From IMG/VR virus record IMGVR_UViG_3300016649_000355: 64,000 bases of DNA. One strand, 5' to 3'. The position numbers and the translations under genes are program-made. Below the pieces are notes generated by a model. It was not told the DNA's origin, did no database searches, and was given only the letters and a program-made list of their open reading frames with translations. Below are positions 44,766 to 45,820 of this stretch, piece by piece; positions within the stretch are counted from its first letter, which is position 1; each line of letters starts with the position of its first letter. This DNA comes from a virus (lineage: Duplodnaviria; Caudoviricetes).

Positions 44766-45596
44766 ATGTCAATAGCTCACAATCCATTAAAACAATATTT
44801 CCGTAGACCTTCAGTTTATTTTAAATTACCTAGCGGAGGAAAAGGGTATAAATCAGGGGTAGTCAACATCCCTGAATCAGGGGAACTTCCTGTTTATCCA
44901 ATGACAGCGATTGATGAGATTACTACTAAAACTCCTGACGCATTGTTTAATGGTACTGCAATGGTAGATATTATTAAAAGTTGTGTCCCTGATATCAAAG
45001 ATCCCTGGGCCATTACCTCAGTAGATTTAGATGCAGTATTAATCGCTATCAGGGCAGCAGGTGGCGGTTCGGATCTAGAGATCGAATCAGAATGTCCGTC
45101 ATGTAAAGAAGTTTCAAGTTATGGTGTAAATCTGTCTGCAATGTTAGCAAACATGAAAGCAGGAGATTATGATAAAGATTTAAATATTCATGACCTCAGT
45201 ATTAAGTTTAGACCATTAACTTATAAAGAACTCAATCAAGCAGGACTTGCTCAATTTGAGATACAAAGAGTATTTTCCGGTATCGAAAGGATTGAGGATG
45301 AAGAAGAGCGAAACAAAAAAACACAAGACGCACTAAAATCAATCACATTACTTACCATGCAAGTCCTAGCACAAGCGGTTGAAGTGATCAGGACCCCAGG
45401 AACAGAAGTCACTGAACAAGAATTTATTGTCGATTTCCTACAAAATTGCGATAAAAATACATACATCGCTATCAGAGACTTTCATTCTAAACTTAAAGAA
45501 CAAACTGAATTAAAACCATTGCGCATCAAATGCGTAAGCTGCACACATGAGTATGATCAACCATTTACATTGAACCCAAGCGATTTTTTCGGTTAA
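44766..45596 (+). CDS. Baseplate hub / tail assembly chaperone (T4 gp26-like)
   Basis: NPLKQYFRRP..YFKLPSGG, PVYPMTAIDEI, D.DAVLIAIRAA, CPSC and C-terminal C..C.HEY...F motifs. Confidence 0.8.
   Translation: MSIAHNPLKQYFRRPSVYFKLPSGGKGYKSGVVNIPESGELPVYPMTAIDEITTKTPDALFNGTAMVDIIKSCVPDIKDPWAITSVDLDAVLIAIRAAGGGSDLEIESECPSCKEVSSYGVNLSAMLANMKAGDYDKDLNIHDLSIKFRPLTYKELNQAGLAQFEIQRVFSGIERIEDEEERNKKTQDALKSITLLTMQVLAQAVEVIRTPGTEVTEQEFIVDFLQNCDKNTYIAIRDFHSKLKEQTELKPLRIKCVSCTHEYDQPFTLNPSDFFG
45584..45590 (+). promoter_or_regulatory. Candidate -1 ribosomal slippery site T_TTT_TTC
   Basis: An X_XXY_YYZ heptamer in the correct phase (GAT TTT TTC GGT TAA), one codon before the gp26-like stop. Confidence 0.65.
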
Positions 45597-45820
45597 GGCT
45601 TCTGTATTCCAATTATGAGGAACTACAGAAGCTCATAGAAACCTATGAAAAAGATGTAAACAATATCAAAAAGAATTGTTTATCTCTAAGTTGGTATATG
45701 CGTGGCGGTGCTTCGTATGAAGATGTTCTGAATATGTCTTCATCCGAAAGAAATCTAATCGGCGAAATAGTAGATAGCAACTTAGAAGTCACCAAGAAAA
45801 GTCAATTGCCTTTCTTTTAA
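45590..45820 (+). CDS. gp51-like segment in the -1 frame, probably reached by frameshifting from the gp26-like gene
   Basis: Open for 76 codons after the slip site: RLRLLYSNYEELQKLIETYEKDVNNIKKNCLSLSWYMRGGASYEDVLNMSSSERNLIGEIVDSNLEVTKKSQLPFF*. There is no ATG/GTG/TTG until 45698. Confidence 0.65.
   Translation, partial: RLRLLYSNYEELQKLIETYEKDVNNIKKNCLSLSWYMRGGASYEDVLNMSSSERNLIGEIVDSNLEVTKKSQLPFF

Follow-up and report, generated by a model that had tools for sequence, protein, structure and literature searches.

Does the gp26-like gene of this phage end where its own reading frame ends, or do some ribosomes step back by one base just before the stop codon and read on into a second frame? The window (the whole stretch of 64,000 nucleotides that was analysed, IMG/VR record IMGVR_UViG_3300016649_000355) is a portion of an uncultured T4-related jumbo phage genome that is present in freshwater metagenomes, and it carries T4-type markers: a portal protein (PF07230), a prohead protease, gp46/47-like nucleases and a late sigma factor (gene at 49663–50535). 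A first-pass annotation had read the locus as a -1 frameshift and had named three observations that would speak against this, namely homologs without the slippery heptamer, homologs without protein-level conservation upstream of the ATG at 45698, and the use of an independent ribosome-binding site or start. On none of the three grounds was the reading refuted here, and we uphold it. Judged from the sequence and its homologs, a programmed -1 ribosomal frameshift at this locus is very likely, and we also consider likely the model as a whole, in which a tail assembly chaperone (TAC) locus of the T4 family is read by -1 frameshifting. That ribosomes actually shift here, and that the products serve a tape measure protein as chaperones, is what we infer from the following features and their conservation.

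41072–44710, minus strand: tape-measure-like gene of about 1200 aa, divergent, presumed client of the chaperones (phrog_794, PF00182)
44710–44729, no strand assigned: two CTAAATA motifs, back-to-back, between the gp26-like and tape-measure-like genes (motif count)
44750–44768, plus strand: Shine–Dalgarno sequence (AAAGGA) and start codon, common to both predicted products (sequence, homologs)
44766–45596, plus strand: gp26-family gene (PF12322, phrog_150) of 276 aa, candidate short form with the TAC-N or lambda gpG role (profiles, model)
45584–45590, plus strand: slippery heptamer T_TTT_TTC, an X_XXY_YYZ pattern lying two codons ahead of the stop (sequence, conservation)
45590–45820, plus strand: -1 frame (76 codons, all-helical), which would form the C-terminal extension of the 351-aa product, with the TAC-C or lambda T role (conservation)
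45591–45596, plus strand: 6-nt spacer from heptamer to hairpin, holding the zero-frame stop TAA at 45594–45596 (sequence, folding)
45597–45633, plus strand: conserved 3' stem-loop of 14 pairs with an 8-nt loop and one bulge, candidate stimulator (folding, covariation)
45698–45820, plus strand: 40-aa MRGG ORF, read as the tail of the -1 frame and not as a gene of its own (no Shine–Dalgarno sequence in homologs)

The upstream gene belongs to a recognizable family. Its 276-aa product scored 62.8 bits against PF12322 (cut-off 24.5; E = 5e-17), with most of the domain covered, and matched phrog_150 at E = 8e-17; the four CxxC cysteines of the protein are invariant. In BFVD, a structural model (pLDDT 87.7) matched assembly proteins of T4-like baseplate hubs (E = 1.5e-24, TM 0.91). 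Searches of the PDB with this model returned no match by Foldseek and only generic helical-hairpin matches by VIA-align, which is no argument against a TAC fold. A strong Shine–Dalgarno sequence was found at the start of this ORF (ORF1) in 95% of homologs.

A tape-measure-like gene, adjacent and divergent as the first-pass annotation had pointed out, is indeed present at 41072–44710 on the minus strand, its product matching the tape measure family phrog_794 (E = 1e-19), and in RaK2 the neighbouring gene is annotated as resembling a tape measure protein. The tape-measure-like protein carries a GH19/lysozyme-like domain (PF00182) at its C-terminus (residues about 900–1110), and ATG 44698 is a more probable start for its gene than GTG 44710. 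No tail tube gene lies beside the gp26-like gene in the window. The motif CTAAATA is depleted across the window (7 copies against 17.5 expected), and four of the seven copies lie just upstream of structural genes (41065, 44710, 44723 and 51110); the pair between the two divergent genes probably represents T4-type late promoters for both of them. Elsewhere in the window, a free-standing HNH endonuclease gene (50624–51094, minus strand) lies between the late sigma factor and baseplate genes.

The gp26-like gene ends GAT TTT TTC GGT TAA, and the in-phase T_TTT_TTC reported there was confirmed at 45584–45590. In-frame T_TTT_TT occurs 14 times in the 19,027 codons of the long ORFs of the window. 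Thirteen of these runs are internal and are followed by at most 14 open codons in the -1 frame, whereas the run at 45584 lies 2 codons from the stop and is followed by 76; with only one of 14 in-frame T runs having a long open -1 frame, the placement of the heptamer goes beyond chance. From stop to stop, the -1 frame is open over 45557–45820. It offers the 76 codons from 45590 (the first after the slip) that had been claimed for it, and ATG, GTG or TTG occurs at none of the first 36. The TGA codons said to close this frame just upstream are present (45548 and 45554), but they are separated from the heptamer by 9 open codons and do not abut it; a stop does abut the heptamer in the -1 frame in 25 of 65 representative homologs. 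Translation of a tandem slip verified the proposed product lengths of 276 and 351 aa and the junction NPSDFFRLRLLY, and the predicted short and long isoforms would have a common N-terminus.

Whether homologs keep the heptamer had been set down by the first-pass annotation as a check on its proposal. Viral contigs were scanned twice, which yielded 85 different junction sequences with that of the window counted in, and T_TTT_TT(C/A) lies in phase in 84 of them; the remaining one (L044, 2316–2328) has another canonical heptamer, A_AAT_TTT, at the same place. One further junction (L045, 2313–2328) has overlapping A_AAT_TTT and T_TTT_TTA. In 79 of 84 homologs the zero frame terminates 2 codons beyond the second Phe, and the -1 frame stays open for 71–75 codons beyond the stop in every junction that is not cut by a contig end.

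Codon invariance was measured over 65 representatives (<80% protein identity) and 87 conserved columns. The codon preceding the Phe pair ends in T in all 65, the first Phe codon is TTT in all 65 and the second is TTC in 64, against a background codon use in these genes of 69% for GAT and 66% for TTT. Just three of the 87 columns are codon-invariant, all of them at the slippery site, and the median for the majority codon is 0.58.

Cultured phages gave the same picture, the T run and the open -1 frame being found in 18 of the 19 inspected: Phosso, Atu_ph07, PA5oct, 121Q, BF, RaK2, fENko-Kae01, Vibrio 2.275.O, GAP32, XaC1, XacN1, RsoM2USA, S-RIM12, Melnitz-2, C48C1, P-SSM2, Mendera and ACP17. A fusion is annotated in none of the records of these 18. 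In four of them (BF, fENko-Kae01, XaC1 and RaK2) the zero frame extends 7–12 codons beyond the heptamer, but the -1 frame keeps its usual FFR..LL opening from the heptamer; since the zero frame overruns while the -1 pattern stays fixed, the junction is defined by the heptamer and not by the stop. In Melnitz-2 (L057:2035–2049) and C48C1 (L058:2045–2058) the stop comes directly after the T run (TTT TTT TAA), and a termination pause may aid the shift in these two phages. The exception among the 19 is Vibrio phage K493, which has no canonical heptamer. Its gp26-like gene has A_CTT_TTC and a TAATG overlap with the -1 frame (L142:1760–1790), and K493 may have another route to the long form.

The first-pass annotation had also held that the part of the -1 frame ahead of the ATG at 45698 reads like protein, and the homologs bear this out. 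Over -1 codons 3–36, upstream of MRGG, diversity at codon positions one to three in 61 homologs was 0.38, 0.30 and 0.57, a bias towards the third position that marks the frame as under coding selection, and the remaining two frames across the same region contain stops in 60 and in all 61 of these homologs. No start codon occurs within the first 10 codons of the -1 frame in 46 of the 61. A search for an independent start or ribosome-binding site found no conserved one: the MRGG ATG has no Shine–Dalgarno signal in homologs, the median being -0.9 kcal/mol there; the corresponding values are -6.1 for the start of ORF1 and -1.3 for internal controls. Gene callers do report just the 40-aa MRGG ORF, as had been foreseen, and Atu_ph07 has the same 40-aa call. 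The extension is single-copy in each related genome and always lies at the gp26-like junction. A fold search with its 76 residues gave no match at E ≤ 0.001; a weak match was to a Moogle tape measure chaperone (E = 2.1, TM 0.60).

Absent from the first-pass annotation was a hairpin that begins 6 nt past the heptamer. In the window the folded stretch reaches -20 kcal/mol (z -4.24), and in 61 homologs the 50 nt past the site gave a mean z of -2.83, while an ORF1 control gave 0.01. Compared with synonymous recoding that preserves the -1 protein, the mean z was -4.6, with -0.81 for a control further down. Pairs of the lower stem are formed in 82–100% of 60 sequences, and a compensatory change from G-C to A-U, with both sides altered, is seen in 5 sequences; these pair counts were made on a named structure and so lean towards it, and the named structure outscores slid registers on both pairing and covariation. 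RNAalifold found no consensus for 60 junctions, a null result that we attribute to register shifts in the upper stem. Several cultured phages have the hairpin in a weaker form or at a shifted position, and an upstream stimulator of the Shine–Dalgarno type was not found. From its position, the hairpin probably stimulates shifting.

The downstream frame could instead be a separate small gene, translated by reinitiation at the codon that overlaps the stop or at the MRGG ATG. Records do annotate it in that way, the MRGG Met is invariant, and coupled re-initiation could also occur in the homologs in which an ATG or GTG overlaps the stop (9 of 61, and in addition Phosso, Atu_ph07, 121Q and BF). Against this, the window has TTA at the overlap with the stop, 48 of the 61 homologs have CTA, TTA, ATA or GTA there, and a start at MRGG would lack a Shine–Dalgarno sequence and leave 36 conserved codons untranslated. 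A separate gene would also leave the codon-invariant T run unexplained, and PA5oct, RaK2 and fENko-Kae01 have no gene annotated there despite an intact -1 frame; we regard this explanation as very improbable. Transcriptional slippage, in which RNA polymerase would add one U within the T run and so yield an mRNA with fused frames, would be in keeping with a homopolymer signal, and the run does reach 9 T in RsoM2USA and at least 7 in Melnitz, C48C1 and XacN1. Polymerase slippage, however, usually needs runs of 8–9 or more, and the run is just 6 T here and in most homologs, which is short for polymerase. The run moreover always keeps one codon phase and is replaced by A_AAT_TTT in L044, and the hairpin sits on the 3' side, at a distance that suits a ribosome but leaves it unable to affect a polymerase on the run; slippage seems very improbable.

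An assembly error, or a gene broken by the loss of one T that split a single 351-aa ORF, would explain why the break sits at a homopolymer run. It is refuted by contigs from other studies in which the T run has no indel, one of them (X4) covering the whole stretch and another (X9) the junction. The same split is also found in the 85 distinct junctions and 18 cultured phages, and the best 120 database homologs are all 274–278 aa, so that the probability of such an error is practically nil. The programmed -1 ribosomal frameshift remains the reading that we prefer. A +1 shift was considered as well and discarded, because in nearly every homolog that frame runs into a stop after a few codons.

How does the locus relate to T4, which encodes gp26 and gp51 separately? 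The first-pass annotation was right that these are two genes, and they are paralogs (E = 2e-6; both match PF12322), but its pairing of gp51 with the downstream frame has to be amended, as gp51 is the counterpart of the whole fusion and not of the downstream frame alone. T4 gp26 (208 aa) ends ..EFFELL, a few residues past FF, while the window protein ends ..DFFG; T4 gp51 (249 aa) has the shared core with an extra short helical C-terminal tail. There is no slippery run at the end of T4 gene 26, and T4 has two divergent paralogous genes where there is one gene here. PF12322 genes number one in each of four relatives (including two contigs rated complete and the cultured RaK2) and two in T4. The predicted short form is the equivalent of gp26 and the predicted fused form that of gp51. 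The -1 frame has weak similarity to the gp51 tail (hhalign E = 0.005, probability 7%, 28 columns), so that the link between these two is drawn from their position and the junction they share; it has no significant similarity to the cyanophage frame and no match to phrog_634. The positional equivalent in cyanophage S-RIM12, a -1 frame annotated as gp51, matches phrog_634 at E = 4e-31, and the tail of T4 gp51 also matches phrog_634.

As predicted for this locus, gpG and gpGT of lambda are a short and a long product with one start, the long one made by a low-level -1 shift (PMC5009743). The tape measure protein is the partner of the lambda short form and the tail tube protein that of the T domain, and the ratio of the two forms is essential (PMC5009743). 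The shift in lambda takes place at a lysine-tRNA site, whereas the window has tandem Phe, and no sequence or structure match between gpG/gpGT and the window proteins was detected. The tape measure gene is co-oriented in lambda, and it lies downstream in lambda and P2, but it is divergent in the window; C48C1 has a tail tube gene followed by the gp26-like gene, the -1 frame and a long downstream gene, an order comparable with V-G-T-H in lambda. P2 makes a contractile-tail chaperone pair, gpE and gpE+E', by a -1 shift on the six-T TTTTTTG (PMC3091744), whereas the heptamer of the window ends in C. The P2 site has no downstream hairpin (PMC3091744), in contrast to the conserved hairpin here, and the P2 proteins are much smaller (91 and 142 aa); no sequence link between gpE/E' and the window proteins was found. 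A two-gene form has been described for phage 0305phi8-36 (PMC2147016), and a 2016 review called T4 an exception to G-T frameshifting (PMC5009743).

Put together, the locus most likely works as follows. Late transcription would begin from CTAAATA at 44710, and most ribosomes would terminate at TAA 45594 to give the 276-aa short form. A minority would stall with UUU in the P site and UUC in the A site while the hairpin blocks the mRNA entry channel; both tRNA-Phe would then slip back by one base to pair with UUU UUU, and reading on in the -1 frame would produce the 351-aa form, which ends in a helical tail of 76 residues. On the model of lambda gpG/gpGT, the tape measure protein would be coated by many short copies and joined to the tail tube protein by a few long ones, with the slip setting the ratio between them. 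In T4, two paralogous genes would supply this pair, 26 the short form and 51 the long.

It is conceivable that the shift is real but that its products are baseplate-hub assembly or structural proteins with no part in tape measure chaperoning, the likeness to lambda being formal; this is compatible with the frameshift itself. The literature treats T4 gp26 and gp51 as chaperones of hub assembly, genetics partly places gp26 in the hub (PMC3004832), and our model matched no solved tail chaperone structure. However, the T4 tape measure protein gp29 is itself a hub component, and the short and long architecture, the small helical extension and the tape-measure-like neighbour all fit G/GT. Passages in two papers (PMC12846349 and PMC10274946) moreover assign these proteins as TACs. 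We consider a hub role without tape measure chaperoning unlikely, and keep the chaperone pair as the preferred reading.

To judge from such passages, a chaperone made in two forms is already a published prediction for T4-like phages, and the present locus is a real, expected case of it. Vladimirov et al. in 2022 reportedly found the frameshift to be conserved in several T4-like groups, with T4 itself using genes 26 and 51. In the passages that cite them, Vladimirov, Gautam and Davidson (Virology 566:9) are said to have identified T4-like TAC genes (TAC-N and TAC-NC), and are credited with poly-T -1 signals in T4-like TAC-N genes (PMC12846349) and with the two-gene form in some T4-like phages (PMC10274946). 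The hairpin, and the reach to jumbo phages of the RaK2/121Q type, may be the undescribed parts; a literature search on RaK2 frameshifting and cyanophage gp51 frameshifting found nothing relevant. We see about an even chance that tandem-Phe U_UUU_UUC and a dedicated conserved hairpin at 6 nt drive the shift in the freshwater jumbo clade and that the T4-like TAC model reaches phages of the RaK2, 121Q, PA5oct and Atu_ph07 type, neither of which points may have been described before. If true, this arrangement of heptamer and hairpin would be one rarely reported for phage tail-chaperone frameshifts.

Under the frameshift reading, a core tail gene would have to be reannotated in hundreds of genomes of jumbo and T4-like phages, in which the small ‘hypothetical’ or ‘gp51’ ORF after gp26 would be the tail of a fusion. 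This reading also supports the published view of T4 genes 26 and 51 as the G/GT pair in two-gene form, the support for which is bioinformatic only, as far as we found. Both 121Q and RaK2 are cultured phages with laboratory hosts, and together with a defined hairpin they make that view directly testable.

Adjoining the -1 frame, and a separate matter, is an ORF-less stretch at 45821–46250, probably on the minus strand and behind a resolvase gene. It matched 113 loci, with about 70–79% nucleotide identity and indels in the best matches, and its homologs span 407–676 nt. No Rfam family at the gathering score and no tRNA or tmRNA was found in it or in the rest of the window. Long unannotated gaps also lie right after the extension in 121Q (L049:2546–3383), BF (L050:2543–3347), GAP32 (L054:1719–2524) and RsoM2USA (L060:1983–3174); they gave no BLASTN match to the 45821–46250 element and could hold a distant RNA. 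An alignment of 40 homologs of the element contains about 110 pairs, 57 of them with at least two double changes, and we take 45821–46250 to be a large structured non-coding RNA, in which covarying pairs outside the nested fold indicate pseudoknots.
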